Assembly (NCBI GenBank): GCA_020720085.1
Contig: DYPE01000004.1
Coordinates: forward strand, 11,922-35,087
Length of the DNA stretch: 23,166 bases
Source: Dichelobacter nodosus
GTDB taxonomy: Bacteria > Pseudomonadota > Gammaproteobacteria > Beggiatoales > Beggiatoaceae
Direction of reading: 5' to 3'
Notes under the pieces: model-generated
Seen by the model: the letters and a program-made list of their open reading frames with translations, nothing else
Database searches by the model: none
What the model was told of the DNA's origin: nothing
Shown: piece after piece, positions 5,101 to 23,166 of the stretch
Position numbering within the stretch: the first letter of the stretch is position 1
Layout of the letters: the number at the start of each line of letters is the position of its first letter
Position numbers and translations under genes: made by a program

Positions 5101-6675
5101 ATGGAATTGCATATTGCGGGCAGTGTGAATGGTAACAACGCAGGGTATGGTATTGAAGCAATCCAGCGAATATTAGATGCCCCCCGCCAAGATATGGCCC
5201 ACGGCTCATCTTGGACAGGGCGGCCTTCTACGCGGCTTCACCGCGACAGCGGGCACATGCTGAAAATCAAGGAAGAACTGCAAATGAATCTGGTTTCCTC
5301 GCAACGCTATGTTGAACAAGCGTTGGCGCGGGAACGCACCCTGCAAGTGCATCCACCTGAAAAAACTTGGTTTTACGCAATTTCTCCCGCAATGCCGGAT
5401 CAGCCGCTGATTGGCAACATCTGCCCACTGCTTACTCCGCTTAACCTGTATTTTGACCGCCATGGTGCAGCAAATCCAAGCGCTTGCCTGAATTATATCA
5501 TTCAGCTATGGGAACTGTATTTTCACACCATAACCACCCATAACGCCCGCCTGGACGAAGGCTTGTCCAACTTTGGCTTAGATGCGCATGACCGCTTATA
5601 CTATTTAGATGACGATCTCTACGCCTGGGATCGGTTCGTCACTTGCGGCCAAATGCTGGGCGTACAACTGCGCTCGCAGCCATGGATAGGTAAAACGCAA
5701 GGGATTGAATTGGGCAAAGCCTTGCGCCAGGCGATCCTGCGTTATTTTGACGACGCCCAATATCTCATCGTGCTCACCGAGCAATTGCGCGGCGTATTTC
5801 TCACGGATGCCCGCCGCCAAGTGTTGGAGGCGCTCATTAGCGGGCTGTATCAGCCCATCGGTCTAATCACCACCGCCACCGCCACGGCTCCCCCCGTTGC
5901 TGTGCCGCAACCCGCACCGCCACCACCACTCCCGAGCCGCTATCTGGCTTTGCTGGCCGACGTACACGCCAATCTGCCCGCACTGGAGGCTGTGCTAAAC
6001 TTTTTGCAGCAAAAAAACATTAGCCATGGTTTTGTACTGGGCGACGTGGTGGGCTATGGCCCGCACCCAGCAGCGTGCATTGAGCGCCTACAGCAAACCT
6101 GCTTAACCGTGCTTAAAGGCAATCATGACCAAGGCTTGGGCAGCAATAAAATCAACGATGGATATTCCATCACCGCCAAATGGGCGCTGGCTTGGAGCCA
6201 GCACCACACCAGTGCCGCACACCGCCAATGGCTATTGAACTTGCCCCCCGTGCTGTATGGCGAAGATTGGATTGCCCTGCACGGCGCGCCCATGGATCCG
6301 ACGTTTTTTAATGCCTACGTCTATGTCATGACCTATGAACAAAATTTGGATAATCTGGCACAGCGGGGCATCCGCCTGTGTTACCACGGCCACACCCACA
6401 TTCCTGGCATCTATGCCCGCACGCCAGATGGCAAGGATCTGCACGTATGGCAAGCGGAAATTGATCTAAATGAGTATAGCCACGCGCTCATCTGTCCCGG
6501 GTCTGTGGGCCAACCGCGCCACGGCTTTAGCGGCGCACATTTCGCGGTACTTGACCGCGAACAAAATAAGCTATTTTTTTATCAGATTCAATATGATATA
6601 CAGCAAATAATCAACGAAATGACCGCTGCCGGTTTTCCTGATGCACTCATCCACCGCTTGCGCACTGGCGCTTAG
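5101..6675 (+). CDS. Two-domain protein: unknown N-terminal domain (~270 aa), Pro-rich linker, and C-terminal calcineurin-like (PPP-type) metallophosphoesterase domain
   Basis: The C-terminal domain carries PPP phosphoesterase signature motifs: LLADVHAN (GDxHG-like), GDVVGYGP (GDxVDRG-like) and KGNHD (GNHE-like), plus downstream His residues. The linker is TATATAPPVAVPQPAPPPPLPS. An alternative start is ATG 5284 (MNLVSS) with the better RBS aaggaag. It lies in the same orientation immediately after the Roadblock gene. Confidence 0.7.
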   Translation: MELHIAGSVNGNNAGYGIEAIQRILDAPRQDMAHGSSWTGRPSTRLHRDSGHMLKIKEELQMNLVSSQRYVEQALARERTLQVHPPEKTWFYAISPAMPDQPLIGNICPLLTPLNLYFDRHGAANPSACLNYIIQLWELYFHTITTHNARLDEGLSNFGLDAHDRLYYLDDDLYAWDRFVTCGQMLGVQLRSQPWIGKTQGIELGKALRQAILRYFDDAQYLIVLTEQLRGVFLTDARRQVLEALISGLYQPIGLITTATATAPPVAVPQPAPPPPLPSRYLALLADVHANLPALEAVLNFLQQKNISHGFVLGDVVGYGPHPAACIERLQQTCLTVLKGNHDQGLGSNKINDGYSITAKWALAWSQHHTSAAHRQWLLNLPPVLYGEDWIALHGAPMDPTFFNAYVYVMTYEQNLDNLAQRGIRLCYHGHTHIPGIYARTPDGKDLHVWQAEIDLNEYSHALICPGSVGQPRHGFSGAHFAVLDREQNKLFFYQIQYDIQQIINEMTAAGFPDALIHRLRTGA

Positions 6676-6676
6676 G
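6625..6676 (+). repeat. 52-bp direct repeat, copy A, covering the last 16 codons and stop of the phosphoesterase gene
   Basis: gctgccggttttcctgatgcactcatccaccgcttgcgcactggcgcttagg recurs at 10139-10190 with one mismatch. Confidence 0.8.
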
Positions 6677-6939
6677 CCATGACTAACTGAATTCGCTTCA
6701 CAACTGAAGCGTGGGCAATGCCGCTGAAGGCTTTGTGCGCCTATCATCCCCCAGCCACTGGCAACCCTGCTGCTTTCCATCAAGACAGCAGCGCATTATG
6801 TCCGCTTCCGCTGTTCATCATGCAGGATTTGTATGAATTGGTGCGCGACTGCGACAAGGTGCTGACGCTCTGAATACGAGAAAAAAAATCATAAAAAAAA
6901 CATTTGGATGAAGATGGTGTGTCGTTGGATTATCCGGTC

Positions 6940-8819: not shown

Positions 8820-9457
8820 CACGCGAAGAGGTGGTTCGCTATCACGCCTGGTACGCCACGCCGCGCGGCGCGTGGATGGCGGCGTGCGAGCTTGCTTTGT
8901 TGCGGGACTTGCTGCATCCTGAGCCGGAAGAACGTCTCCTGGACGTGGGCTGCGGCACAGGCTTTTTCAGCAGCCAATTTGCTGATTGGGGCTTGCATGT
9001 GACCGGCCTTGACCCGGACAGCGCGAGGCTGGACTTCGCCCGCCAACACGACCAGCGGATTGATTGGCTGGTGGGTCAAGCAGAAACGCTGCCGTTTGCT
9101 GACGCGCAATTTGATTACGCCGCCGCCATCACCAGTTTGTGCTTTGTAGCGCGACCCGCGCAAGCCTTGCAAGAACTGTGGCGCGTCAGCCGCCGTGCAG
9201 TGATTCTGGGGTTGCTCCACCGCCACAGCCTGTTGTGGTGGCACAAACGCCACGCGCTGGGCTATCGGGGCGCACGCTGGGATACCCTGGCAGATGTCCG
9301 CACTTGGGCAAAAGCCTTGCAGCCCGCGCCACAATTGGCTTGGCGCTACGGAATTTTTGAGCCATCCGCCAGCGGTTTCGCGCAAATAGTGGAATCCCGC
9401 CTGTCGCCACGCTTACCGCTGGGCGGATTTTTGGCAGTGGCATGGCGGCGCACATAA
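8816..9457 (+). CDS. Class I SAM-dependent methyltransferase (Methyltransf_11-like)
   Basis: Motif I LLDVGCGTGFFSSQFADWGLHVTGLDPD and a post-I acidic residue. Motif II/III region DWLVGQAETLPFADAQFDYAAAITSLCF...RRAVILGL. The ORF track extends upstream to 8729; ATG 8816 (MTREEVV) is preferred because of the ATGA coupling. Confidence 0.75.
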   Translation: MTREEVVRYHAWYATPRGAWMAACELALLRDLLHPEPEERLLDVGCGTGFFSSQFADWGLHVTGLDPDSARLDFARQHDQRIDWLVGQAETLPFADAQFDYAAAITSLCFVARPAQALQELWRVSRRAVILGLLHRHSLLWWHKRHALGYRGARWDTLADVRTWAKALQPAPQLAWRYGIFEPSASGFAQIVESRLSPRLPLGGFLAVAWRRT

Positions 9458-9517
9458 CCTATTCACTTATTTTGATTCGCTTTCTTAACTTCAACTGTAA
9501 AAAAAGGAGTCTTTCCT

Positions 9518-10030
9518 ATGAAAACAACCATGCGTTTTTTCCAAGCCGGAATCGTGGGCATTGCGCTGGGCTGCGCACACATCAGCTATGCGGCGGACGC
9601 GCCGCGCCCGGATGACAGTTTCGCCTTGAAAGGCGTAGAAGTCGGCAAGGTCGCGTTTGACATCACGCCTGGCGACGCCAAAAAATTGGCGCTGTTCTTA
9701 AAAGTCATCGCGCAAACCCATGCGGATTTGCTTCGCCAAAACGTCAAACCCGACATGGTGTTGGTATTTCACGGCGCAGCAGTACAATTGATCACCAGCG
9801 AGTATCCGGCGGATTTGGCGTTGGACGATGAAGACGCACGCAAAGAAATTGCCTCAATTTTGGCGGATTTACATCATAAAGGGGTGCGAATTGAGGCGTG
9901 TTCAATTGCCACTGAGTTGTTTAAGGTCAATACCCAGGCTTTGTTGCCAGGCATTGTGTTGGTAGGTAATACCTTTGTGTCGCAAATTGGCTATCAGGCG
10001 AAAGGATATGCGATTATTCCGGTGAATTAG
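9518..10030 (+). CDS. Exported protein (Sec signal peptide), tentatively DsrE/DsrF-like fold
   Basis: Excellent RBS aaaaaggag. Signal peptide MKTTMRFFQAGIVGIALGCAHISYA-AD. The mature ~145-aa domain (MVLVFHGAAV...GVRIEACSIAT) is reminiscent of DsrE/DsrF-like sulfur-relay-fold proteins. The family assignment is a low-confidence guess. Confidence 0.55.
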   Translation: MKTTMRFFQAGIVGIALGCAHISYAADAPRPDDSFALKGVEVGKVAFDITPGDAKKLALFLKVIAQTHADLLRQNVKPDMVLVFHGAAVQLITSEYPADLALDDEDARKEIASILADLHHKGVRIEACSIATELFKVNTQALLPGIVLVGNTFVSQIGYQAKGYAIIPVN

Positions 10031-10138
10031 CGCGATTGGATGCGCTCGGCAGGCGGTGCCCTGAGCTTGCCGAAGGGCGGCAATCAATTGCGCTAAACGA
10101 TGCGCTTCGCCAAAAGACGCTCAGCGCATCCTACGCGG

Positions 10139-10190
10139 GCTGCCGGTTTTCCTGATGCACTCATCCACTGCTTGCGCACTGGCGCTTAGG
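10139..10190 (+). repeat. 52-bp direct repeat, copy B (51/52 identical to 6625-6676); right boundary of the putative islet
   Basis: gctgccggttttcctgatgcactcatccactgcttgcgcactggcgcttagg. In frame it would encode AAGFPDALIHCLRTGA*, a duplicate of the phosphoesterase C-terminus. Confidence 0.8.
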
Positions 10191-10270
10191 CGATTACCGG
10201 ACAAGAAAATCCCAGCTTGCAGGCATTTTCTTGGACAGAAATCGCCTTACCCTTGGAAACCTCCGAAAGC

Positions 10271-10837
10271 TTACTGCCCCAGCCGTAGCGCGCGCAGCAA
10301 CCATTGCGCGGGTGGAGCCGATTTCACCGCGATTTTGGCTTGGCCGCGTGTGCCAGAGACAAAGGGGCTGGGATTGGCGCCGGTGTATTCGGTTTGTACT
10401 ACCGCCAGATTCGTTTGCAGCAGCACCGAAGTGAATGTGTTTGTTTGGCCCGGCGCGTGTGCGCCTGGTGGATGCACGGCCACCACAATGGCGGGAATCG
10501 CGCCAAGCGCGCGCGTTGCGCTATCAGGCAGATACACCCATGCGGTTTGGCCCTCTGCGAGAACAGCACTGGCTTGGGGCGGAAAATCGGCCCGCATCAT
10601 GCGTTCTATGTATAATTTGGCGCGTTGGCTAGCGCCTTGGCCATTAAAACGCATGGACGTGGTTTCCTGGTTAAGGACTTCCAGTTGATTACTGGTTTGG
10701 TACAGTGTCAACGGCATGAAAAAAAACCAATAGCTCCATGCCAGTGCCAGCGCTATGGCCAATCCCAACGCAGCCAAAGGGATGCGCGTTAGGTGTGGAT
10801 CCAGTGCCCGTTGCGTGCGTGAAAACGGCGCGGTCAT
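10271..10837 (-). CDS. Hypothetical membrane-anchored protein (N-terminal transmembrane helix, periplasmic domain)
   Basis: Minus-strand ORF with the helix IPLAALGLAIALALAWSYWFFF and natural amino-acid composition. The opposing plus-strand ORF (10155-10688) is Cys/Arg/Trp-rich and looks like a frame artefact. The ORF track begins at GTG 10846; ATG 10837 is preferred. Confidence 0.45.
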   Translation of the reverse strand: MTAPFSRTQRALDPHLTRIPLAALGLAIALALAWSYWFFFMPLTLYQTSNQLEVLNQETTSMRFNGQGASQRAKLYIERMMRADFPPQASAVLAEGQTAWVYLPDSATRALGAIPAIVVAVHPPGAHAPGQTNTFTSVLLQTNLAVVQTEYTGANPSPFVSGTRGQAKIAVKSAPPAQWLLRALRLGQ

Positions 10838-10894
10838 GCGCGCCACCCTGGTAGCGGATACCGGTAGCGGCGTTGCCGGTAGCGGCGCTGGCGG

Positions 10895-11314
10895 TCAGCC
10901 CACATCAACAATACGGTATTCATGCGTGATGTCGGCGGTTTTGTTTAACATATGGGACACAGAGCAGTATTTTTCTGCCGATAAATCAATGGCCCGTTTA
11001 ACATGCACTTCGCTCAGCGCGTTGCCGGTGACAATGAATTGCAGATGAATGCGGGTAAATACTTTTGGTTCGCTGTCCGCACGTTGTGCTTCTAGCAAAA
11101 TCTCGCAATCCGTGATTTCCTGTCGGCTTTTTTTCAAAATACTGATTACGTCCATCGCCGTGCAGCCGCCCAATCCCATCAACACCAATTCCATGGGCCG
11201 GGCACCCAAATTATTGCCGCCAATTTCCGGTGCGCCATCCAGGACAATGGCATGGCCGCTGTCAGCAGTTGCGGTTAGACAAGCGTTTTCCACCCATTTA
11301 ATTCGTGCTTTCAT
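10895..11314 (-). CDS. OsmC/Ohr-family peroxiredoxin-like protein
   Basis: MKARIKWVENA...GHAIVLDGAPEIGGNNLGARPMELVLMGLGGCTAMDVISILKK...HLQFIVTG.ALSE..V.RAIDLSAEKYCSVSHML is the OsmC fold signature, including the conserved Cys pair. RBS aaggaa 9 nt upstream of ATG 11314. The ORF track extends to 11374. Confidence 0.8.
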   Translation of the reverse strand: MKARIKWVENACLTATADSGHAIVLDGAPEIGGNNLGARPMELVLMGLGGCTAMDVISILKKSRQEITDCEILLEAQRADSEPKVFTRIHLQFIVTGNALSEVHVKRAIDLSAEKYCSVSHMLNKTADITHEYRIVDVG

Positions 11315-11349
11315 GTTCCACGGTTCCTTAACTAATTTATGAACTTTAC

Positions 11350-11378
11350 TTGACAACACCGCGCAAAACCGCAAGAAT
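11350..11378 (+). promoter_or_regulatory. Putative sigma70 promoter for tRNA-Met
   Basis: -35 TTGACA at 11350-11355, a 17-nt spacer, and -10 aagaat at 11373-11378. This lies ~16 nt upstream of the tRNA 5' end. Confidence 0.35.
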
Positions 11379-11394
11379 ATGCGCCTTTACGGAC

Positions 11395-11471
11395 GGCTAT
11401 GTAGCTCAGCTGGTTAGAGCGCGGCACTCATAATGCTGAGGTCGGTGGTTCGAGTCCACCCATAGCCACCA
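11395..11471 (+). tRNA. tRNA-Met (anticodon CAT), elongator type
   Basis: 77-nt cloverleaf: acceptor stem GGCTATG/CATAGCC, D-arm GCTC...GAGC, anticodon loop CTCATAA and T-arm GGTGG TTCGAGT CCACC, ending in an encoded CCA. G1-C72 paired and close similarity to enterobacterial metT argue for the elongator type rather than initiator. A lysidine tRNA-Ile2 cannot be fully excluded. Confidence 0.88.
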
Positions 11472-11508
11472 AATACAAAGTCTACCACACTGTTGGAAAG
11501 GCCACAAA

Positions 11509-11545
11509 ACCCGCACAGCTTCATGCTGTTGCGGGTTTTTTTTGC
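11509..11545 (+). terminator. Rho-independent terminator after tRNA-Met
   Basis: A GC-rich hairpin (cccgcacagc ttcat gctgttgcggg) followed by tttttttt. Confidence 0.6.
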
Positions 11546-11614
11546 GTCTTTTGCACGCGCGGTTTATGCTATTTGCATTCTTACCCCCTCATCGCAATTC
11601 ACGGAACCGCACAC

Positions 11615-12745
11615 ATGGGACAACAAACTCCGCTGTATTCGCAGCACTTGGCCGCGCACGCTAAAATCGTCGATTTTGGCGGCTGGGACATGCCATTGCA
11701 TTATGGCTCGCAAGTGCAAGAACATCACCAAGTGCGCACCCACGCGGGCCTGTTTGACGTTTCGCACATGACTGTGGTGGACGCGCATGGCCCGGGCGCG
11801 CGCGATTTCCTGCGCTACGCGCTGGCCAACGACGTGGCGCGCCTGACGGTACCCGGTAAGGCACTGTACAGTTGTATGCTCAATGCCCAGGGCGGCGTGG
11901 TTGATGATTTGATTGTCTATTTTTGGACGCCCGAACACTATCGCTTGGTGGTGAATGCGGCTACGCGCGCCAAGGACTTGGCGTGGTTAAACCACTTGAC
12001 CGCCGGTTTCGCTGTCACGCTGGCGGAACGCGACGATTTGGCCATGCTGGCAGTGCAAGGACCGCACGCACGCGAACGCGCTGTTCCGCTGTTGCCAACG
12101 GCGTTGCACGCGCCTGCGTTGGTATTGCCGCCGTTTCACGCTTGCCAAGACGGCGACTGGATGGTGGCGCGCACCGGCTACACGGGCGAGGATGGCTTTG
12201 AAATTTTGTTGCCCGCGTCGCAAGCTGCGCAAACTTGGGAAGCATTACTGGCTGCTGGCATTGCGCCCGCTGGCCTGGGCGCGCGCGATACCCTGCGCTT
12301 GGAAGCAGGCATGGCGCTGTATGGTCATGAAATGGACGAAACCACCCGGCCTGACGAGGCCGGGCTGGCCTGGACGGTGGCCTGGACGCCACAACGCGAT
12401 TTTGTAGGCCGCGTTGCGCTGGCTGCACAGCCTGCTGCGTACCAACAAGTGGGCATACTGCTTGCCGGCCAGGGCGTGCTGCGCCAAGGCCAAACCTTGT
12501 GGCACAATGGCGCGCTCGCTGGCCAAATCACCAGCGGCGGCTTTGCGCCCACGCTCAACGCCTCCATTGCCCTGGCACGTGTGGCTACGCAGCACACAGC
12601 GGTGTCTGCCGTTGCCGCCCATGGCTGGGAGGTGGAAATCCGGGGCAGTGCACAGCGCTGCCGTCGTTTGTCGGTACAACGGGTAAAACCGCCATTCGCC
12701 CGCCATGGTGGGTCATGCTATACCCAATTACCGGCGGCTGAATAA
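11615..12745 (+). CDS. gcvT: Glycine cleavage system T protein (aminomethyltransferase)
   Basis: MGQQTPLYSQHLAAHAKIVDFGGWDMPLHYGS...HQVRTHAGLFDVSHM...ARTGYTGEDGFEI is the classic GcvT signature. The ORF track starts at 11573; ATG 11615 matches the family N-terminus. Confidence 0.9.
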   Translation: MGQQTPLYSQHLAAHAKIVDFGGWDMPLHYGSQVQEHHQVRTHAGLFDVSHMTVVDAHGPGARDFLRYALANDVARLTVPGKALYSCMLNAQGGVVDDLIVYFWTPEHYRLVVNAATRAKDLAWLNHLTAGFAVTLAERDDLAMLAVQGPHARERAVPLLPTALHAPALVLPPFHACQDGDWMVARTGYTGEDGFEILLPASQAAQTWEALLAAGIAPAGLGARDTLRLEAGMALYGHEMDETTRPDEAGLAWTVAWTPQRDFVGRVALAAQPAAYQQVGILLAGQGVLRQGQTLWHNGALAGQITSGGFAPTLNASIALARVATQHTAVSAVAAHGWEVEIRGSAQRCRRLSVQRVKPPFARHGGSCYTQLPAAE

Positions 12746-12810
12746 CTTCTGTTTTATCAAGATCCATTATTTTTTAACAACTTTTCGTCCAATCACTGGA
12801 GAGAACAATC

Positions 12811-13200
12811 ATGAGTGACATCTTAGAGGAATTGAAATACACCGAAGAACATGAGTGGGTTCGTGACGAAGGCAATGGCATGGCCACAATAGGCATCACG
12901 GATCATGCGCAGAGCCAATTGGGCGACGTGGTGTATGTGGAATTGCCCGAAGTGGGCGCACGTTATGCAGCGGGTGATGCCTGTGCCTTAGTGGAATCGG
13001 TTAAGGCGGCTTCCGATGTGTACAATCCGCTGGACGGTGAGGTCACGGCGGTCAACGACAGCCTGAATGACAATCCGCAAAGCGTGAACCACGATCCCTA
13101 TGGCGACGGTTGGTTGTACCGTCTGAAAGTCAGCGACACTGACCTTAGCCACTTGATGTCTGCCGAGGAATACGCTGCACTCGTGGCGGAAGAAGAATAA
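12811..13200 (+). CDS. gcvH: Glycine cleavage system H protein (lipoyl carrier)
   Basis: YTEEHEWVR...GITDHAQSQLGDVVYVELPEVG...ESVKAASDVYNPLDGEV contains the lipoyl-Lys motif ESVKA. RBS ggagag. Confidence 0.9.
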   Translation: MSDILEELKYTEEHEWVRDEGNGMATIGITDHAQSQLGDVVYVELPEVGARYAAGDACALVESVKAASDVYNPLDGEVTAVNDSLNDNPQSVNHDPYGDGWLYRLKVSDTDLSHLMSAEEYAALVAEEE

Positions 13201-13203
13201 GCC

Positions 13204-14622
13204 ATGCCCTACATCCCACACACGCCCGCTGAAATCCAGGAAATGCTCGCAACGTTGGGAATGGCGTCCACTGAGGCGTTATTCGCTGAAATTCCGCTGG
13301 CGTTGCGCAGTCCGCCGTTGAATGGCTTACCGCCTGGCATGAATGAGGCAGAAATCAGCCGCCTCATGCACAGCCGTGCGCGCCAAGACAGCGGCGGCAT
13401 ATGCTTTATCGGCGCTGGTGCTTACGAACACCATATTCCGGCAGCGGTGTGGGAATTGGCCAGCCGTGGCGAATTTTACTCCGCCTATACGCCCTATCAG
13501 GCTGAAGCCAGCCAAGGCACGTTACAGGTGATGTACGAATTCCAATCCATGATGGCCACGCTGACGGGCATGGACGTATCTAATGCCTCACTGTACGACG
13601 GGGCCTCCGCACTGGCAGAAGCGATTTTGATGGCGCTGCGGCTGGCGCGCAATGCGCCGCGCCGCGTGCTGGTGCCGCGCACCTTGCCGCCGCGTTACCG
13701 CGACGTGGCGCGCACGCTGGTGAAAAACCAAGGCATTGAATTGGTGGAGGTGGCGTTTGATCCGCACAGCGGCCAAACCTTGCCATCCCATTTCGATCAA
13801 GCGTTGGCGCAAGCGGGCGGCGCGGCAGCGCTGGTCATCCCGCAACCGAATTTTTTTGGCGTGATCGAGGAGGTGGACGCTTGCGTAGCGTGGGCCGCCG
13901 CGCAACAGCCCGCGCTCATGACCATTGCAGTGGCCAATCCGTTGGCCTTGGCCATTCTCGCGCCGCCAGGCGAATGGGGCGGCCAGGGCGTGGACATCGC
14001 GTGCGGCGAAGCGCAGCCGCTGGGCATTCCGCTGTCCTCTGGCGGCCCTTACCTGGGCTACTTATGCTGTAAAAACGAGCACATCCGCCAACTGCCCGGG
14101 CGCATTGCCGGACGCACCACCGACGTGGAAGGCAATCCTGGCTTCACGCTCACCTTGCAAGCGCGCGAGCAGCATATCCGCCGCGCCAAGGCTACGTCGA
14201 ATATTTGCACCAACCAAGGGCTGATGATGATTGCCTCAACCATTTATATGGCGTTGCAAGGTGCAGAAGGCTTGGCGCAAACCGCATGGGCGTGTCACCA
14301 TAACACGCTGGCGTTGCGGCAAAAATTGACTGCCATTCCAGGCGTTGCAACGGTATTTGACGCGCCCGTGTTCCATGAGGCGGTGTTGCGTTTACCAGTG
14401 GACGCACGCGAAGCGCTGCGTATTTTGGCCGCACACAATATCCTCGGTGGCTATGCCTTACAAGACGATTATCCTGAGTTGGGTAATGCTGTGCTGGTGT
14501 GCGCCACGGAACAACGCACCGACGAAGAGATGGAACAATACGCCGCGCATCTGCGCCGCGTGTTGCACCAAAACAGCGCCAGCTCGTGCAAGATGCCGCC
14601 CGCATCCATCTTCTCAACTTAG
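13204..14622 (+). CDS. gcvPA: Glycine dehydrogenase (decarboxylating) subunit 1, the N-terminal half of a split P-protein
   Basis: The N-terminus [31 protein letters not shown] and a ~470-aa length match GcvPA. The start is 4 nt after the gcvH stop. No gcvPB follows. Confidence 0.85.
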
Positions 14623-16040
14623 CGCGGAATTTTCGCTGCGGCGGGCTTTTTGTTGGCCGTCGCAGCGGCGGTGTTCCCGCCAACGGCGGATTCGCGCGGG
14701 AACACTTGCTGTAGCGTGTCGTAAAATTCCCGCACGCGCATCACAAAATGCACGGCCTCGAACCCGCGCGAATAGCCGTGGCGGGTTTGGCTGTGCCAAC
14801 CGGGTTGGCTCAGCTTGCGCAAATACGCTTGCACATCCACCCAGTGGTTAGGATCCGCGCCGTAACGCGCCGTCAATGTGCGCGCGTCCTCCACATGACC
14901 TTGACCTTGATTGTATGCGGCCAAGGCCAGCCAAGTTCGATCCGGTTCAGGAATTTCCAGCGGCACGTCCGTGAGTATCATGTGAAAATAGCGGCTGCCG
15001 CCATCAATGCTTTGCGCAGAATCCGCGCGATCTTGTACACCCATGCGTTTTGCCGTTTCCTCTGTGAGTTGCATCACGCCGCGCACACCCGTGGGCGATA
15101 CCGCGTGCGCGTCCCAGCGCGATTCCTGGTAAGCGATTGCTGCAAGCAAGCGCCAATCCAGCCCCAGCTCAGTTGCGGCTTTAACGAACAGTGGGCGGAG
15201 CTTAGGCAGGCGTTGTTCTATATGTTCATGAAATGTTTTGGTATGTACATAATCAAAATCTTCCATATGGCCATAATAACGATCCAGCAAACGCGCCAGC
15301 TCGCCGCTTGCGCGCAATTGGTTGAAGAAACGCAAGGCGGCTAAGTATAGGCTGTCATCGTCGCTTAACCGTGGAAACATCCAGGCCAAGGGCAGGTCGT
15401 CAGTGAGATCGAAGGCGGCGCGTAAATTAGGCCAACGGCGTTGGTAATACGCCAGTTCGTTGGAATATACCACCGTATAATCAATCGTTTGCTCATCCAC
15501 TTGCTGTAACAATTCGCGACTGGCGGACAACTGACTTTCACCCCAGACCAGGCCAGGGTTCTGTGCGCGCAATTGTTGCAATGGCAACAAATAATCTGGG
15601 TTGGCTTCCACGAACAGGCAGGTGCCGGTATGGACTAAATCTTCCGGCCCTTGGGGCTGGCGGCTGCCGTTGCGGTATACCAATTCCGCGCGCACCGTTT
15701 GGTAGCTGGGGCCAAAACGCACGTAGTTACGGCGCTCTGGGGTAACCGCCAAACCAGCAGCGGCCAAATGCGCACGCTTGCTGGCGGTCAAATGCAGCAC
15801 TTGATCGGAGTTTTCTGCCAGGATTAGTTCCATATGCACGCCCAACTCGCGCGCGAAACGCGCGGCAAGTTCGTATTCTAGGCCATCTTCCTGGCCATTT
15901 TCAGCGCGTTGGTAGGTGGTTGGACTCGCGCGCGTGACTACCACCAGCTTGCCTTCGGCTTGGATACGCTCCAGCAAAGTCATTTTAGAATGATAAAACG
16001 TATGCACAAACCCAAGGAACATAATCAGCAAAATTTTCAT
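14619..16040 (-). CDS. mltF: Membrane-bound lytic murein transglycosylase F (periplasmic solute-binding-like domain plus SLT domain)
   Basis: Signal peptide [16 protein letters not shown]. An SBP_bac_3-like N-terminal domain. The C-terminal SLT motifs are [30 protein letters not shown]. Convergent with gcvPA, whose 3' end it overlaps by 4 nt. Confidence 0.85.
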
Positions 16041-16130
16041 TTTTTCGTAGGGTCGGTAGCCTGGAATTGTCCCCGTGCGAGGGGGCCATAAACGTAGGGC
16101 GGATTAAGGCGCGTGGGTCTGCGCCGTATC

Positions 16131-16190
16131 CGCCAACGACGGCGCTCCCGTCAACGGCGGCGTTCCCGCCAACGACGGCGTCCCGTCAAT
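16131..16190. repeat. Degenerate 18-bp tandem repeat (~3.3 units; ccgYcaacgRcggcgYtc) in the mltF upstream / GT2 downstream spacer
   Basis: ccgccaacgacggcgctc ccgtcaacggcggcgttc ccgccaacgacggcgtc ccgtcaatc, visible directly in the sequence. Confidence 0.6.
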
Positions 16191-16197
16191 CTTGGCT

Positions 16198-16959
16198 TCA
16201 CTTGTCTTCTTGGGCGTCGGCCAACAGCATGAGTTTTAGATAACGATAATACGTGGATTCTGCATTGGACACTGCGAGCATGAAGCCTTGCTTGCCATCC
16301 AACAGCCCGAGGCGCAGGAAGTAGGTGCGGATAAACGTCCACAACCCAGCCAGCACCGCCTTGGTCAAGCCGCCGGTTTGGCCTTGGGCCAGGCGTTGCG
16401 CTGCGCCCGCGCTGGAGTAGTGGTTCATTTTTGCCACCACTTCTTCTAGGGTTAAAAAGGAATAATGAATCAACGGTTCCGCCAGGGTTCCCACGTTATG
16501 CCCGTCCGCTACTATCAAGCGTTCATGCACCACATCGTCGCTAAAGCGTGCGGCATCGCGCTGGAACAGCCGGGTGACATAATCGGGCCACCAGCCGCCA
16601 TGGCGCATAAATTTTCCACAATACCACGATTTTCTAGGCATTTTCCAAGCGGCGTAACGTGCGCTGACCATGGCCGCAGCGATGGCTTGGCGTAAAGCGT
16701 CGCTTACTTGTTCATCGGCATCCACTGCCAGCACCCAATCGCCAGTGGCAAAGTCCAGCGCGCGGTTTTTTTGCCGACCAAAGCCGGGCCAGTCCGGCAT
16801 AATGTATACCTTGGCGGTAAATTCCTGGCAAATCGCCACCGTGTCGTCTGTGCTGCCGGAATCTACCACAATAATTTCATCGGCCCATGCCACCGATTGC
16901 AAGCACGCGCGAATGCAGTGGCTTTCGTCGCGGGTGATGACAATGACGGACAGGGACAT
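16198..16959 (-). CDS. Family 2 glycosyltransferase (KdtX/WaaE-like)
   Basis: [39 protein letters not shown]...DWVLAVDADE carries the GT2 DxD/DAD signatures. Its ATG shares one nucleotide with the kinase stop (TAATG). Confidence 0.8.
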   Translation of the reverse strand: MSLSVIVITRDESHCIRACLQSVAWADEIIVVDSGSTDDTVAICQEFTAKVYIMPDWPGFGRQKNRALDFATGDWVLAVDADEQVSDALRQAIAAAMVSARYAAWKMPRKSWYCGKFMRHGGWWPDYVTRLFQRDAARFSDDVVHERLIVADGHNVGTLAEPLIHYSFLTLEEVVAKMNHYSSAGAAQRLAQGQTGGLTKAVLAGLWTFIRTYFLRLGLLDGKQGFMLAVSNAESTYYRYLKLMLLADAQEDK

Positions 16960-19196
16960 TATTCGCGCGCTGCCAAAAATTGTTTAAACGCAGCCAATGT
17001 CGTTGGAATGCCATCCATATCAAATAGCGCGGTTTGCTCCTTTAGCTTTGCCGCCCACGCTTCGAGCGGCGCATAGCCAATGCGGTTGGCGGATTGCATG
17101 GCCAATGTGGCAAAATTTTCCAATTCATTGATACTGGAAGTATCGTCTAGGGCGCGCCATGCGGGTTCTAACACCGTATTGATTTCCTCGCGTGCACGGT
17201 GATCTGGCAATGGGATTACTGTTTCTGCTGCTGGCGGCGGCGCGCTGGCTGGCTGGGGAGGCGGGCTGACGGGCGACTCGCAGGGCAAAAAACGCCGCAT
17301 GAACTCGATTAAATCTGGTTTTTTAACCGGTTTGGGCAAATAGGCATCGCATAATTCCAATACTCGCGGAATTTCTTGCTGATCCAAAGCAGTGACTGCG
17401 ATGATGGGGATGTCCGCTGTATTGCTGTCGCTTTTCAAAATGTGGGTGGCTTCAAGACCGCCCATCAGAGGCATCTTCATGTCCATCAGTACCAGCGCGG
17501 GATGGTATTTGCGCGCCAACGTCACCGCTTCCTGGCCGTTGGTGGCTTCCAAAATGGACAATGGCTGGGAAGCCAAGAAGCCGCGCAACAGTTTACGGTT
17601 CAACGGCTCATCATCCGCCACCAGAATGGTGGCTGGAACGAATACCGTGTCTAAGCGCGGTTTGGCAGCGGTCAAGCGCGCTTGCACGCGCGTGGACGGC
17701 AACAAGGCCGGTAGGCGGAGAGTAAATGTACTCCCTTTATGTTCTTCGCTTTCCAAGGAAATCGAGCCGCGCATCAGTTCCACCAGCCGCCGGGTAATGG
17801 CCAAGCCTAGACCGGAACCGCCATAAGTGGCGTGATCCTGGTCACTACGTTGCTCAAACGCGCCAAAGATACGCTCAAATTCGCTGGCAGGAATGCCGAT
17901 GCCCGTGTCGCGCACGCGCACTTCTAATACGCCAGGTTCTTCTGCATACGGTGCTGAAGCCGATGCGGGCAAGTAGCGCGCCAACAGTTCGATATGGCCG
18001 TGTTCGGTGAATTTGACCGCATTGCCCACAACATTGAGGAGAATTTGGCGCAAACGGACACCATCCAACAGCAACGACGGCGGCACGTTATCGTCTATGC
18101 TGATGTGCAATTGTAGGCCCTTGGCGCGCACGCGAAAGTCAAAAATGTGCCGCAGCTCTTCACATAAACGCGAAAATTGTGTTTCTGTGGTCTGAATTTT
18201 GAGTTTGCCTGCTTCAACTTTAGATAAGTCGAGCAAGTCATTCATTAACCGCAGTAACGCCTCGCCGCTGTTAATAATTGCGGACAGGTAATCACGCTGG
18301 TGGGGATGGGTAATTTGCGTGCGCAGAATTTCCGCAAAACCTAAAATGGCGTTCATTGGCGTGCGGATTTCGTGGCTGATAATTGCCAAAAATCGGCTTT
18401 TAATCTGGCTAGCCTCTTCGGATTCTGCCTTGGCCGCTTCCAGACGCAAATCGCGTTGTTGAATCAAGGCCAGCATTTCATTAAAGCGGGTAATCAACCG
18501 GCTGAGTTCTTCGCAGCCTTGCTCATTGGCGCGCACGTTGTAATCCTGTTCGCTAGATACGCGCCCCATGGTTTCCAGTAAGTGGTACATGGGCTGGGTG
18601 ATTTTTTTCTGCAAGGCGAAGCCCATGGCCAGAGCCGCTGCAAGGGAAGCCACAGCGGCCATCAGGGCTAATCCCCAGTAAAGATATAAGCGCTGGTAAT
18701 GGTTGCTCATGTCCATGCGCAAAAAAAGAGTACCTACGGTTTTAACATCCTGCTTAATAGAAAGCGCTAATTCATATACGCCGTGGTGGAAGCGGCTTTC
18801 ACCCTGGCGTATTTCCCAGTTTTCTATCCCCAATGCGGCCTGCTGTTCCCCGGCAATTGAGCAATAGGTGGCAAAAGGCAGGTTATCTTGGCCATAAATT
18901 TCCGCACGCAATACATCCCGCGCGTACTTCAGCGCTTTTAGAATTTCATTGCCACCGCTGGGGTCTTTGAACATCACCGCTGCGGCTGCGGGGTGGCCGA
19001 TGATCGAAACAATGGTTTTGCTTCGTTCTATTACGGCTTGCCGCGTCAGTGCATACTCGTAGTAGCTGACGAAGCTTAAAATAAACAATACAGCTAACCC
19101 AGTGGTCGCCAGGGTAATGCGCATCAATTGATATTTGATGCTATTCCAAAATTGGGTTGGCGGCTGCGGCCTTTGATCCACGGTGGAATTTGGCAT
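16959..19196 (-). CDS. Hybrid sensor histidine kinase / response regulator (TM - periplasmic sensor - TM/HAMP - HisKA - HATPase_c - REC - C-terminal Hpt-like domain)
   Basis: H-box [20 protein letters not shown] boxes NAVKFT...DTGIGI...GGSGLGLAI. Receiver [14 protein letters not shown]...[16 protein letters not shown]...PIIAVTA. Two hydrophobic segments bracket a ~150-aa periplasmic region. The C-terminal ~110 aa resemble an Hpt domain, but with Gln where the phospho-His is expected ([11 protein letters not shown]), which is an inference. Confidence 0.85.
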
Positions 19197-19745
19197 TCAT
19201 GGCGTCCCTTCTGGCGGCTGGGCCAGATTTAATAATTTGTAGCTGAGTTGCAGTCCTGCGCTTTCCGCCTGGTCTTGGTGAATGGCAAAACGCACGTTTT
19301 TTCCTTTCCAGTGCAGCCGTACCATGCCACCTTGGGAAAGGAAACTAGGCGTTTCCGCTACGGTCAGCACTGGCGCGCCTGCGACTTGGTGCAATACCTC
19401 GGCCACCTGGGGTACGGATTGCGCAATAAAGAGTACATGACATTGCGTAAGGTTTGCCTTTGCCGTGGTGCTCAAATAGCGCGCTTGCAATGGCCGTCTG
19501 CGCACGGTTTCATCGCGCAAGGTTTTATCTAGCCAATCGCCAAATGGATTTTCCCCTAACACACAGAGCGTGATAGCTTCGTCCTTATTGGCAAAAGCGT
19601 GTTCTGGCCAGGTAACAAAATGCGTGAAATTAAATAGGTACACGGCCTTGATTTGGTATTCCTGGAGCAGATCGGTGTCTTGTGCACGGGCTGGGTCACC
19701 ACTGAACAGCCACAGCACAGCAATAAAAAAATAGCGCATTTTCAT
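19197..19745 (-). CDS. YfiR-family (DUF4154) periplasmic regulatory protein
   Basis: Signal peptide MKMRYFFIAVLWLFSGDPARA, followed by IKAVYLFNFTHFVTWP, the hallmark DUF4154/YfiR motif. The mature domain is ~160 aa. The kinase starts immediately after its stop (TGA then ATG), and its own ATG overlaps the TonB-receptor stop (TAATG). Confidence 0.7.
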   Translation of the reverse strand: MKMRYFFIAVLWLFSGDPARAQDTDLLQEYQIKAVYLFNFTHFVTWPEHAFANKDEAITLCVLGENPFGDWLDKTLRDETVRRRPLQARYLSTTAKANLTQCHVLFIAQSVPQVAEVLHQVAGAPVLTVAETPSFLSQGGMVRLHWKGKNVRFAIHQDQAESAGLQLSYKLLNLAQPPEGTP

Positions 19746-21913
19746 TAGGGTATCCGATAGCGAAGTTCTATTCGCACCGCACGTCCAGCCATGGGGTAGT
19801 CTCCTGGCACCGCGAGAAATCCTGCTCGATTAAGTCCAGGCGAGGGTTCAGCATAATCCGTATCCAGGATATTTTGCACCGTGAGTCCAGCCTCCCAGCG
19901 GTGGCCTAATTTTTTATGGACTATCAAATCAAATAGGGTGTATTCCGCCACTGGCGGGCGCGGATCAGTGAATTCGCGGCCTCGCTCGCCCACTTGGCGC
20001 GCTTGCACGCTCCATTGCCAATCCGGCGTAGGATTCCACACGCTGCGTGCTGCCATTTGGTAGTGCGGCACCATGGGCGCTAGCCTGCCCGATGGCTCGA
20101 GCCGCGCCCATTGTCCAGCAATGTGATACGCCAGCTTAAATTGCTTCGACTGCCGCCATTCGACTTCTATTTCGCCGCCCGGAATGTCCTGCGCGTCGCC
20201 ATTGATGACTTGTATTGAAGCCCCCGGGCCAGCGTCGGTCATGATGGCGTCGCGCCATTGCGAGTAAAAAATACTGGCAGCAAGGCGCACAGCGCTGTGG
20301 GGTCGCCACTCCAGGGCCGCTTCCCAAGTGCGCATGGTTTCTGGTTGCAAATCTGGGTTGCCTAAGAAAGAAGGGTTATTGCGGGCATACAACTCTTCCC
20401 AATTCGGTGGGCGAAACGCCTCGCCATACAAGAATTTAGCATTAACGCTGGCAGTGGGCGACCACACCAACGCCAGCCGTGGGTTCCATACCGCGCTACG
20501 TTCTTGATCGCTTTGCCATGGCGCAGAAAAGTACGTGTCATAGCGCAGACCCAAGGTCAACTCCACTGTGTCGCTCAGTTGCCAGACATCCTGCGCGTAA
20601 ACATAGCCCAGATGGCGGGTTCCCCTGGGCAAAAAGGCGTATTCGCTGTCGCTTAAATCCGTGACTGGCGCGCCAGCAGGTAGAAGACCGAACGGCGTCT
20701 GCCCAAAATTGCGCTGGTCGTGGACATACTGAATATTGGCATATTCATAGCCCATGCCCAGCCGCCAATGGTGGCGATCCAGCCCACGATAGCTCAGCGT
20801 GGTCTCAGCGCGGACAAGCCTCTGATCCGTACCGATATTGGCAATGACTCCATCGGGATACGCACCCTCGCCAGGCAAACGTGCGCCTTGGGGAGACAGC
20901 CGCTGATTTTCACTTTGATACCCCTGATATTGCGCGAATAGGGCAGCAGACCCGCGCCAATCGTCATCCAGCACCCAATCTTGCGCCTGCAAGTTGGCGT
21001 ACCAGCGATCCGTGTTTAAACGGCCTTCTGGGTCTAGGCTATAGCCATAGCCCAGCGCGGTGCGTACCTCACGACGGCCTTGATACGCCAAGCCAGCGCG
21101 CAGAAAATTGCGCCCTGGCTCGCCTCGGGTGGCATCCAAGCGTATATCCGCATCCTGATAGCCCTGTGGCAACGCGCTGGGCGCGCGCGAGGCGCGCGAG
21201 GCGGTGAGGTCGTCGTAAAAAGATTGTTGATCGCGCTCCACCAGGCCACCATCGCCCGCGCGAGCAGCATAATCCACCATGGTCATAAGGTTCCAACCGT
21301 TACCAAGCGGCTGGCCATGGTGCAGCCAAGCGCCATGCTGCTCGAAATTACCAGCGCGCACGCCTGCTTCGGTGGTGGGCGCATTGCCGTGCGCAGTTTT
21401 GGTGGTAATGCTGATAACGCCCGCCACCGCGTCCGCGCCATACAGCGTCGAACCTGGGCCACGGATGACCTCAATCCGTTCGATTTGTTCAATCGGCACC
21501 CCATTCCACGCCACGCCCTGGTTCCCGCCCACCAGCGACGCAATGGGCGCGCCATTGAGCAATATCAGGGTTTGCGCGTTGGCAGCCGAAAATACGCCGC
21601 GAATGACATAAATATCCTTGTACAACGTGTTGGTGGAAATATGAATGCCTGGCACCGAAGCCAGCGCGTCGCGCACATGGCCAGCGCCCATTTCCACCAA
21701 ATCCTGCCGAGTCAGTACCGTGGCCACGGCGGGCGCTTTATTCACGGGCGTGGGAATGCCGCTGGGCAGGGTCGCTTTTTCCACTGGCAATTCCACCAAC
21801 TCACCAAAGTCCAGGTCTTTTAATTTTTTCAAAACATTGTCTTCATCTGCCCAAACAGGCAAGAATGCGCTGGCCACCAGCACAACCAATGCAAATGGAA
21901 AAAAACGTGTCAT
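19745..21913 (-). CDS. TonB-dependent outer-membrane receptor
   Basis: Signal peptide MTRFFPFALVVLVASAFLPVWA. Plug-domain motifs (VIRGP.S.LYG..A..GVI.I.T). A long beta-barrel region with repeated aromatic-x-aromatic patterns. The ORF track extends to 22000; ATG 21913 gives the canonical signal peptide. The C-terminus (...RYRIP) lacks the usual terminal Phe/Trp. Confidence 0.85.
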   Translation of the reverse strand: MTRFFPFALVVLVASAFLPVWADEDNVLKKLKDLDFGELVELPVEKATLPSGIPTPVNKAPAVATVLTRQDLVEMGAGHVRDALASVPGIHISTNTLYKDIYVIRGVFSAANAQTLILLNGAPIASLVGGNQGVAWNGVPIEQIERIEVIRGPGSTLYGADAVAGVISITTKTAHGNAPTTEAGVRAGNFEQHGAWLHHGQPLGNGWNLMTMVDYAARAGDGGLVERDQQSFYDDLTASRASRAPSALPQGYQDADIRLDATRGEPGRNFLRAGLAYQGRREVRTALGYGYSLDPEGRLNTDRWYANLQAQDWVLDDDWRGSAALFAQYQGYQSENQRLSPQGARLPGEGAYPDGVIANIGTDQRLVRAETTLSYRGLDRHHWRLGMGYEYANIQYVHDQRNFGQTPFGLLPAGAPVTDLSDSEYAFLPRGTRHLGYVYAQDVWQLSDTVELTLGLRYDTYFSAPWQSDQERSAVWNPRLALVWSPTASVNAKFLYGEAFRPPNWEELYARNNPSFLGNPDLQPETMRTWEAALEWRPHSAVRLAASIFYSQWRDAIMTDAGPGASIQVINGDAQDIPGGEIEVEWRQSKQFKLAYHIAGQWARLEPSGRLAPMVPHYQMAARSVWNPTPDWQWSVQARQVGERGREFTDPRPPVAEYTLFDLIVHKKLGHRWEAGLTVQNILDTDYAEPSPGLNRAGFLAVPGDYPMAGRAVRIELRYRIP

Positions 21914-22129
21914 GAAATGAAACTCGTCAAAAGGATACGTTATACTTAACGCCAGCGTTATAAAGGGTTGTGCGCATGAAAAATCTGGCGCATTCAACAC
22001 ATCTGCCTTTAGGTATGCACATGCTGGTTTGCATTTTAGCAGGATTTAGCCTAGCGCGGGATTACTCCTATACGGTTACTAAGCACAAGCCAGTGCCCTC
22101 TTTAGCAATGAACCCAACCCACAGTCATC

Positions 22130-23166
22130 ATGCGTTGTTTGATTAAAACGATAATCCGCTCCGGCGGAGGCAGCAAAGTGTACCGCGAACAACGGGTCAG
22201 CGTGGACACGCTGGCGTTGGGGCGCGGCGCAGATCAAACGATGTTTTTGCCAGATGCTGGCATAGCCAGGAGCACTGGCGTAGCCAGGAGCACTGGCGTA
22301 GCCAGGAACGCTGGCGTAGCCCGCGTTCCGGGCACGATTGCACAAGCCAGCAACGGCGGTTATTTGTTTCAAGCGCCGCACGGAGTAGGTGCCCGCGTCA
22401 ATGGCCGCATGACGCGGGCCGCCTTGCTCAAGACCGGCGATATTATTGAGTTGGATCGCTTGCGCATAACGCTGTTGGCGTGCAAGCGTGCGGCGGGGGC
22501 GGATGAGGACGCATTAATCCTGGAAATAGAAGAAGTCACGCCGCCACGTGCGCCGGAATTCCCTTTGCCCGCCGCACCGGGCCATGCCCGTACCCGGAAC
22601 ACGGGCGTTGTTCCGGGCTACGCCCGCATTCCGGGCTACGCCCGCGTTCCGGGCTACGCATGGTTTACACAGCGACGTAGCGCCTGGCTTTTGTTTTTAT
22701 TTATTATTTTTGCATTTTTACTGGTTCCGTTATTCAGCGTGTATTGCCAAAATTGCTATCAGCCCTGGCAAGAACGCCTGCAAACCTGGTTGTACCCCGA
22801 GGGTGATGGCACGCTGGCACTGCCCTGGCTGCTGTCGGACAAATTTTGGAATTCTGGCGAACTGGCGTCTGCCCATCATTTTTTTCAACACGATTGTAGC
22901 GCTTGCCACCAGCAGCCATTCGCACCCGTGACCGACGAAGCGTGTACCAATTGCCACCGCACCACCCATCCGCATGTGGATCCGTATTATTTTGCCGTAG
23001 ACTTTCTCATCACCACCCGCTGCGCCGAATGCCATGCCGAACACAATGGTCGCGCTGCCTTGGTGAACCGCGACGATAGGCTATGTAGCCAATGCCACCG
23101 CGATTTGGCGCGCCATTCGATTTTAACCACAGTGGAGGATGCCGCTGATTTCGGTGAGGATCATCC
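22130..23166 (+). CDS. FHA domain - hexapeptide repeat linker - single transmembrane helix - multiheme cytochrome c domain (at least four CxxCH); 3' end outside the window
   Basis: Manual translation of frame 2, which is open to the window edge and therefore absent from the ORF track. MRCLIKTIIRSGGGSKVYREQRVSVDTLALGRGADQTMFLPDAGIA-[RSTGVA]x3-...GARVNGRMTRAALLKTGDIIELDRL is an FHA domain. It is followed by the repeats VPGYAR IPGYAR VPGYA, the transmembrane helix AWLLFLFIIFAFLLVPLF, and then CSACH, CTNCH, CAECH and CSQCH within ~90 aa. Confidence 0.6.
   Translation, partial: MRCLIKTIIRSGGGSKVYREQRVSVDTLALGRGADQTMFLPDAGIARSTGVARSTGVARNAGVARVPGTIAQASNGGYLFQAPHGVGARVNGRMTRAALLKTGDIIELDRLRITLLACKRAAGADEDALILEIEEVTPPRAPEFPLPAAPGHARTRNTGVVPGYARIPGYARVPGYAWFTQRRSAWLLFLFIIFAFLLVPLFSVYCQNCYQPWQERLQTWLYPEGDGTLALPWLLSDKFWNSGELASAHHFFQHDCSACHQQPFAPVTDEACTNCHRTTHPHVDPYYFAVDFLITTRCAECHAEHNGRAALVNRDDRLCSQCHRDLARHSILTTVEDAADFGEDH
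22262..22333 (+). repeat. 18-bp tandem repeat (3 near-perfect units plus 1 degenerate; gtagccaggagcactggc) lying in-frame inside the FHA domain
   Basis: Read directly from the sequence. It encodes the (A)RSTGV hexapeptide repeats. Confidence 0.85.
22595..22659 (+). repeat. 18-bp tandem repeat (ccgggctacgcccgcRtt, ~3.5 units) lying in-frame in the cytoplasmic linker of the FHA-cytochrome gene
   Basis: Read directly from the sequence. It encodes (V/I)PGYAR repeats. The unit is nearly identical to the acgcccgtgttccgggc repeats at window positions 1-36. Confidence 0.85.

Follow-up and report, generated by a model that had tools for sequence, protein, structure and literature searches.

A divergent, partly eroded member of a recorded family of FHA-fold multihaem cytochromes in a Dichelobacter nodosus contig

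We analyzed a stretch of 23,166 nucleotides from Dichelobacter nodosus (contig DYPE01000004.1; hereafter the window) and, within it, the gene that runs off its end at positions 22130 to 23166. The gene encodes a forkhead-associated (FHA) fold, a single transmembrane (TM) helix and the beginning of a multihaem domain, and we hold it almost certain that it belongs to a large family with this layout and is a real gene for an inner-membrane-anchored periplasmic multihaem cytochrome with a cytoplasmic FHA-fold domain. Within that family, which has been recorded before but is uncharacterised, it is a new member, divergent and in part eroded. On balance we favour a picture in which the protein would be a haem wire tethered to the inner membrane within a module for transmembrane electron transfer, its FHA domain serving for docking. 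An earlier reading of the DNA letters (the first-pass annotation) had proposed the fusion, suggested Pfam searches for both domains and a search for relatives with the same domain order, and interpreted the protein as a member of an undescribed family coupling redox state to phospho-signalling.

Domain architecture of the window gene

The gene contains the following features:

22130..23166, forward strand: 5' part of the FHA–TM–multihaem cytochrome gene, 345 codons, an open frame cut by the window end
22130..22534, forward strand: predicted cytoplasmic N-terminal FHA-fold domain, aa 1-135, degenerate in this copy
22257..22321, forward strand: in-frame 18-bp tandem array of 3.6 copies inside the FHA domain, found by TRF
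22611..22659, forward strand: in-frame 18-bp tandem array of 2.7 copies in the linker between the FHA domain and the TM helix, found by TRF
22679..22747, forward strand: predicted single TM helix or signal anchor, aa 184-206, from hydropathy, the AF2 model and invariant residues
22847..23166, forward strand: start of the predicted periplasmic multihaem domain, aa 240-345, from motifs, Pfam and the family profile
22895..22909, forward strand: first CxxCH motif, CSACH, aa 256-260, family-invariant
22943..22957, forward strand: second CxxCH motif, CTNCH, aa 272-276, family-invariant
23021..23035, forward strand: third CxxCH motif, CAECH, aa 298-302, family-invariant
23084..23098, forward strand: fourth CxxCH motif, CSQCH, aa 319-323, family-invariant

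The frame from the ATG at 22130 is free of stops to the last base of the window at 23166, and the first 345 residues are readable there; full-length relatives have 545-620 aa. The window protein begins with MRCLIK and its aligned homologues with MRCLIR, an agreement that marks 22130 as the true start. The gene is missing from the supplied list of open reading frames (ORFs) because those running off the source DNA are not listed, as the first-pass annotation had supposed. The annotation was also right to place FHA fold, TM helix and cytochrome in one protein: the alignment with hundreds of relatives runs from end to end, and a chimera or frameshift artefact was rejected given hundreds of independent full-length relatives with the same domain order. 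A metagenome scan with the window protein returned nothing closer than 36% identity, covering part of the protein only.

Across the six frames of the 23-kb window there are five CxxCH motifs in total, four of which fall in the cytochrome frame within 68 codons, a clustering far beyond chance. All four lie at aa 256-323, in agreement with the earlier count of at least four, and they align with the first four of the family's ten. His249, His282, His305 and His345 are invariant in the family alignment and are candidate distal ligands. In Pfam, the Paired_CXXCH_1 model matched the window fragment just over its cutoff (21.6 vs. 20.6 bits), together with sub-threshold c3/c7 matches, which answers the domain search suggested for the cytochrome part. 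When the family profile was compared with solved proteins, the best match was the Geobacter dodecahaem cytochrome GSU1996 (3ov0), with an E value of 1.6e-16 over four matched stretches. The other closest solved sequence relatives of the haem domain were NrfB and chain A of 6r2q, an entry that we take to be the MtrCAB complex, although the match table gives its chain another name. The periplasmic domain appears to be built from c7/c3-like modules, with ten CxxCH motifs in the family.

Only one stretch of the window protein exceeds a 19-residue Kyte–Doolittle mean of 1.6 (aa 184-206, peak 2.77), and the AlphaFold2 (AF2) model of the window fragment places a helix at aa 181-205. Directly before the helix stands QRRS, whose arginine (R182) is invariant in the family, as is P200 inside the helix; both are kept in the window copy. 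The first CxxCH follows about 50 residues past the helix. All invariant residues of the TM and haem regions are intact in the window copy (R182, P200, H249, the four CxxCH motifs, H282, H305 and H345). The N terminus is taken up by the FHA domain, and the window protein has no N-terminal signal peptide. CxxCH sites need Sec export and periplasmic haem attachment through cytochrome c maturation. Given the missing signal peptide, the one helix with its Arg-rich flank and the periplasmic requirement of the CxxCH sites, we infer an N-in, C-out signal-anchor topology as the only consistent arrangement. The layout given in the first-pass annotation, in which a single TM helix links an N-in FHA fold to a periplasmic multihaem domain of c type, is thus supported, its topology as a prediction.

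The Pfam FHA model gave no match to the whole window protein (E ≤ 10) or to its N-terminal 136 aa (E ≤ 1); with the repeat collapsed, the region reached 13.7 bits for PF00498, whose gathering threshold is 20.7. Homologues score 18-40 bits for the same model, and the window region aligns column by column with homologues at 30-40 bits. The N-terminal profile of the family matches the solved FHA domains of GarA, OdhI, FhaA and EmbR (E values of 1e-11 to 1e-8), and the AF2 model of the window fragment is a beta-sandwich with a predicted local distance difference test score (pLDDT) mostly of 86-96 outside two low-confidence inserts. The suggested Pfam search therefore left this copy unmatched, but, judged by homology and predicted fold, the FHA assignment is correct.

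To describe the phosphothreonine pocket, we counted residues over 182 full-length family members with the GarA alignment as reference. The Gly-Arg pair is kept (Gly in 179 and Arg in 161 of the 182), as are the structural His (148/182) and the late Asn (151/182), and the VSRRHA of GarA reads VALxHA in the family. At the canonical phosphate-contacting Ser position, 110 of the 182 members have Ala and 13 have Ser, with Leu as the next residue in 138, and neither the Asn nor the Thr of the S-x-N-G-T loop has a conserved counterpart. Because only the Gly-Arg of the phosphothreonine contact set is kept, these residue patterns indicate that the family has an FHA fold with an incomplete pocket.

The window copy shows further changes of its own. 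The first array adds about 18 aa (GIARSTGVARSTGVARNAG...) at the site where relatives have RVALxHA, and the second array produces a linker insert of about 27 aa (...VVPGYARIPGYARVPGYA); neither insert is found in 15 aligned relatives, and both coincide with low-confidence loops of the AF2 model (pLDDT below 50 at aa 49-63 in the FHA insert and at aa 154-174 in the linker insert). The window reads VARVPGTI where relatives read RVALxHAxI, with the near-invariant His-Ala gone, and the family-conserved R44, H49, A50 and G91 are changed. The loss of His-Ala, R44 and G91, together with the insert, explains the Pfam FHA miss. Being without its partner in the window, with a degenerate FHA domain and with the visible haem-binding residues intact, the copy is an outlier in the family.

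The two arrays within the gene are reverse complements of each other, with inverted arms of 46-50 nt that are 78-85% complementary. They lie about 290 nt apart, and the minimum-energy mRNA fold of 22240-22680 pairs them as a long-range stem (z = -5.4 vs. shuffles); such pairing could affect translation, or could lead to inversion or deletion of the C-terminal half of the FHA domain. In total, the window has four tandem arrays with an 18-nt period (1-35, 16130-16189, 22257-22321 and 22611-22659), one of them intergenic, one at the window edge and two in frame within the cytochrome gene. Their repeat unit has a 3-nt loop between a 5-bp GC stem and a second 5-bp stem, followed by a 5-nt spacer (e.g., CGTTC or CATTC), and looks like a genome-specific mini-repeat able to expand in coding sequence.

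The family, its gene cluster and the window locus

A protein search found 16 relatives, 526-599 aa long, which span the entire fragment at 46-25% identity, the best of them (P0001) at 46%. Most of the 16, and likewise a later set of 44 homologues, carry precomputed PF00498 and c3/c7 cytochrome domains, and a phmmer search with P0001 scored the window fragment at 298 bits. Among 1.84 billion cluster representatives, a profile search picked out 1,766 proteins at E ≤ 1e-30; as the representatives are clustered at 50% identity, these stand for at least 1,766 clusters. The best 150 of the 1,766 all match end to end, nearly all at 545-620 aa; the search suggested earlier did find relatives with the same domain order. 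Among full-length members, 180 of 182 have exactly ten CxxCH motifs. A scan of one genome per species, using 8 sequences, placed relatives in at least 200 species. The carriers include Burkholderiales, Usitatibacteraceae, Casimicrobiaceae, Lysobacter, Steroidobacteraceae, Stellaceae, Vicinamibacteria and Bdellovibrionota, with Methylotenera mobilis 13 and M. oryzisoli among the isolates, and the closest match in these species-representative genomes, among which the window's own is missing, has 37% identity (locus L038). Neither a Pfam nor an NCBIfam model spans the fusion.

We studied synteny by comparing the neighbour proteins from the contigs of three relatives against 89 loci with tblastn. 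The recurrent neighbours of the cytochrome gene were the following:

Directly upstream, 85/89 loci, two of the four exceptions being contig ends: membrane protein of 276-302 aa with five TM helices (5-TM protein)
About 63/89 loci: protein of 800-850 aa with Pyr_redox (FAD), two cyclic-nucleotide (cNMP)-binding and 4Fe-4S domains
61/89 loci: HbpS-like protein of about 700 aa
57/89 loci: protein of about 620 aa with a weak outer-membrane-porin match
55/89 loci: LVIVD/multihaem protein of about 1,300 aa
47/89 loci: c554-like cytochrome
7/89 loci, within 10-kb flanks: Ser/Thr kinase
2/89 loci, within 10-kb flanks: PP2C phosphatase

The 5-TM partner has His82 and His96 in its third hydrophobic helix and His254 and His268 in its last helix in 69 of 69 distinct sequences, forming two HX13H pairs on TM3 and TM5. 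It has no Pfam family, and one member shows a weak cytochrome b561 match. Two HX13H pairs on two helices are the ligand pattern of di-haem b proteins (NOX/ferric-reductase domain), and on this pattern the partner is a predicted di-haem b protein. A helical cytoplasmic insert of about 110 aa is also seen in the partner (e.g., L004:9163-9993).

Composition of the cluster varies among the relatives closest to the window protein. In the nearest one, P0001 (46% identity), the 309 nt upstream hold no 5-TM partner and the genes downstream are unrelated; the protein itself is full length with 10 CxxCH. The partner is kept in P0003, P0006 and P0004 of the same clade, in P0003 together with the FAD/FeS protein and in P0004 with a kinase and a small outer-membrane protein instead of it. 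In the clade with both kinase and PP2C (P0015, P0016), the Gly-Arg arginine of the cytochrome's own FHA domain is Ser.

Downstream of the cytochrome in L004, L005, L007 and about 55 other loci are the genes for the HbpS-like, porin-like, LVIVD/multihaem and c554-like proteins, and this extended cluster looks like an undescribed porin–cytochrome-type outer module; the HbpS-like protein of about 700 aa is lipoprotein-like by eye. In L007 (1-1875; 21045-21791), as in L009, the entire cluster is flanked on one side by an FHA-Trans_reg_C (EmbR-like) regulator and a Ser/Thr kinase, and on the other by PP2C. In L038 (4314-9736), an operon for a DmsABC-like molybdopterin oxidoreductase, split by a nucleotidyltransferase/HepT toxin–antitoxin pair, precedes the cytochrome gene.

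In the window, the cytochrome gene has these neighbouring features:

21914..22129, no strand: 216-nt divergent intergenic region between the TonB-receptor gene and the cytochrome gene
19745-21913, reverse strand: TonB-dependent receptor, the divergent neighbour, with its ATG at 21913

Beyond the receptor come a DUF4154/YfiR-like protein and a CHASE8-HisKA-HATPase-REC hybrid kinase, the same proteins as in the TonB-receptor/YfiR-like/hybrid-kinase operon from which the first-pass annotation had the gene diverge. Further genes of the window encode a GT2 glycosyltransferase, an MltF-like transglycosylase and glycine-cleavage proteins. A functional link to the TonB/YfiR/kinase operon was rejected, as the adjacency occurs in none of the related loci whose neighbours were read; it looks incidental. 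The 216-nt intergenic region has no trace of a 5-TM partner gene, and the 5' region gave no Rfam match and one weak promoter-like match, with promoter and terminator scans no better than on shuffles. The cluster proteins had no tblastn match anywhere in the 23-kb window even at E ≤ 1, and no kinase or PP2C was found among its ten largest ORFs with Pfam or by tblastn queries. As far as the 23 kb shows, the window gene is a stand-alone copy.

A few observations concern the window at large. Its positions 9197-21447 are 100% identical to the JGI contig TB_GS09_5DRAFT_10002489 (sample 3300000234); that contig stops within the TonB-receptor gene, some 800 nt short of the repeat-bearing cytochrome gene. 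The proteins of the window are also recorded on an NCBI contig of 80,122 bp, and look-ups with two candidate starts of the TonB receptor gave no match. A 59-nt direct repeat of 95% identity is present at 6625-6683, in the end of a metallophosphoesterase ORF, and at 10139-10197, near the start of the ORF 10155-10688. Two long ORFs are without a Pfam match, 177-2402 (741 aa), which contains a 120-nt tandem repeat at 1584-1802, and 3009-4034 (341 aa).

Electron transfer and competing explanations

In the picture that we favour, the decahaem cytochrome would form a haem wire at the outer face of the inner membrane and, in most genomes, the periplasmic end of a three-gene module. The module would include a cytoplasmic FAD/NAD(P)H-type oxidoreductase with two cNMP-binding domains and 4Fe-4S clusters, and a 5-TM protein that may carry a pair of b-haems, one above the other within the membrane, like proteins of the NOX/ferric-reductase type. 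Electrons would pass to or from the cytoplasmic FAD/FeS protein through the di-haem-b-like partner and the wire and, in many genomes, could be handed on to the porin/multihaem outer module; the HbpS-like, porin-like, LVIVD/multihaem and c554-like neighbours suggest a chain that leads from the cytoplasm towards the cell surface. The solved relatives of the haem domain are haem chains and the redox partners are conserved, and for these reasons we regard a role of the protein in electron transfer as very probable. The FHA domain would serve in docking or assembly on the cytoplasmic side, probably without recourse to phosphothreonine, and not as a signal reader; for docking without phosphorylation, we see the balance as even.

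Several points weigh against this picture. The window copy and P0001 have no upstream 5-TM partner, and the logic of the module is borrowed from more distant relatives. In the window fragment, 4 of the expected 10 haem sites are visible, the AF2 model of the haem domain has only moderate confidence (pLDDT 50-80), and structural comparison gave no match to solved multihaem proteins. The 5-TM partner has no sequence match in the Protein Data Bank, its b-haems being predicted from the histidine pattern, and the authors of a recent preprint (see below) found no redox motif in the corresponding protein. With the Gly-Arg arginine kept in 161 of the 182 members, some anionic or phospho ligand is possible for the FHA domain, and a Ser/Thr kinase lies two genes upstream in the P0004 locus.

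A bolder version would make the family the core, in the inner membrane, of a NOX-like, undescribed electron route linking cytoplasmic NAD(P)H with the periplasm or the cell surface, by way of the FAD/FeS/cNMP protein, the two-b-haem protein, the decahaem wire and, in many genomes, the porin-like and giant LVIVD/multihaem proteins. The FHA domain might then act as a switchable clamp that docks the cytoplasmic donor under the control of cyclic nucleotide or, in some lineages, of phosphorylation, and the window copy might be a stand-alone wire with partners elsewhere in the genome. We put this forward tentatively and doubt that it holds.

The explanation closest to the coupling of redox to phospho-signalling in the first-pass annotation is a signalling device in which the FHA domain reads phosphothreonine, with the redox state of the haems relayed to Ser/Thr-kinase signalling or phosphorylation gating the electron flow. 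In its favour are the genuine FHA fold, the persistence of the GR arginine in 161 of 182 members and the two cNMP-binding domains on the cytoplasmic partner, by which the module should be regulated somehow; moreover, two clades have kinases nearby, 7 of the 89 loci carrying a kinase gene within 10 kb, that of P0004 from the window's clade included, and PP2C closes the cluster in two loci that also have the FHA-Trans_reg_C regulator. The residue patterns and synteny nevertheless make it unlikely and do not sustain the original proposal. The phosphothreonine contacts are mostly lost, with Ala in 110 and the canonical Ser in only 13 of 182 members, Leu next to it in 138 and the loop Asn and Thr absent. 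Most loci are without kinase (7/89) or phosphatase (2/89) genes, whereas the redox partners are near-universal, and the FHA arginine is Ser in the very clade that has both kinase and PP2C (P0015, P0016). The window copy adds to this by its missing His-Ala, the 18-aa insert within the domain and the lack of a kinase or phosphatase among the ten largest window ORFs or by tblastn.

The erosion of the window copy could also mean that it is a decaying or non-functional remnant, cut off from its partners and worn down by repeat expansion. Such a fate would fit the absence of the 5-TM partner and every other cluster gene from the 23-kb window, the two tandem arrays within the coding sequence and the loss of R44, H49, A50 and G91, with the FHA domain undetected by Pfam. 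The frame, however, is intact over its 345 codons, the two arrays come in multiples of three bases and sit where the model predicts loops, and all invariant residues of the TM and haem regions are kept. P0001 has no upstream partner either, yet is full length with 10 CxxCH, which indicates that stand-alone copies can persist, and we find decay improbable. Less probable still, to our judgment, is a CymA/NrfH-like quinol dehydrogenase or quinone reductase with the FHA domain as an accessory, the idea of the Ferrigenium preprint discussed below. The single N-terminal anchor helix with periplasmic haems does resemble NapC/NirT-type proteins, the analogy drawn in the preprint, and the L038 gene follows a DmsABC-like operon for a quinol-linked oxidoreductase. 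The window fragment has no match to Pfam Cytochrom_NNT (PF03264) at E ≤ 10, though, and the NCBIfam model of NrfH (TIGR03153) matches neither the window fragment (E ≤ 10) nor P0001 (E ≤ 0.01). A first CxxCH about 50 residues beyond the helix would seem a poor fit to a haem at the membrane surface, and the near-universal four-histidine 5-TM partner would offer a more direct route through the membrane.

Multihaem cytochromes leading away from the inner membrane play a central part in the oxidation and reduction of iron as well as in extracellular electron transfer. The conserved pairing of the cytochrome with the four-histidine membrane protein and the cytoplasmic flavo-iron-sulphur protein provides a concrete, testable route through the inner membrane. 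With no partner and an eroded FHA domain, the window copy is a poorer start for experiments than the cultured carriers.

Comparison with known systems

The source databases give the proteins generic names only ("FHA domain-containing protein" at NCBI and "predicted CXXCH cytochrome family protein" at JGI), and the first-pass annotation had taken the family to be undescribed. This proved incorrect, as a table from 2023 and a preprint from 2026 record the fusion. Hoover et al. 2023 (PMC10734462) list a "Forkhead-associated protein, 10 CXXCH" as cluster 403, found in 27 of the 87 iron-oxidising Gallionellaceae, and do not comment on it. The preprint on Ferrigenium straubiae (bioRxiv 10.64898/2026.01.22.701106) reports a membrane-associated nonahaem cytochrome (NHC) with a cytosolic FHA domain, located beside a 5-TM protein and a [4Fe-4S] protein; its authors state that FHA was previously unreported with multihaem cytochromes and leave the function open. 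NHC and cluster 403 share the FHA–TM–multihaem order with our family, and the neighbours of NHC match the partners found in relatives; the equation is made by architecture and neighbours, not by sequence comparison. NHC has 9 haems by its authors' count, and the family has ten CxxCH motifs in 180 of 182 members. The window copy differs from NHC in its two repeat insertions, its degenerate FHA domain and the absence of such upstream neighbours. Our analysis adds how large and widespread the family is, the incompleteness of its phosphothreonine pocket, the four-histidine partner found at nearly all loci, and the extended gene cluster.

The FHA domains of GarA/OdhI, FhaA (Rv0020c) and EmbR have a phosphate-contacting Ser-Arg where the family has Ala-Leu, and the family is without their loop Asn and Thr; the window copy additionally lacks the structural His. 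A cytoplasmic FHA fold also occurs in membrane assembly proteins of secretion systems, YscD/EscD of type III and EssC/YukB of type VII. Scores with the Yop-YscD_cpl model, whose cutoff is 33.2 bits, stayed under it throughout, from 13.9 bits for the window protein with the repeat collapsed to 32.4 bits for P0008, and no secretion-system component was found among the Pfam-assigned neighbour genes of the window and three relatives' contigs. In contrast to the type III and type VII proteins, the extracytoplasmic part of the family is a cytochrome.

For the haem domain, the closest parallels are GSU1996 (3ov0), NrfB and MtrA, which are chains of bis-His c-type haems made from small modules, as the family domain is predicted to be. 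The GSU1996 match covers only the haem part of the family profile and is modular rather than end to end, GSU1996 being a soluble periplasmic protein. NapC/NirT proteins (CymA, NrfH) share with the family the single anchor helix and periplasmic c-haems; they have four haems and no cytoplasmic domain, whereas the family combines a predicted ten haems with an FHA domain and a membrane partner of its own. The decahaem model for MtrA/DmsE (TIGR03508) matches neither the window fragment nor P0001. MtrA/DmsE proteins are soluble in the periplasm and made with a cleaved signal peptide, whereas the window protein would be held at the inner membrane by an anchor helix that joins its periplasmic haems to a cytoplasmic domain.

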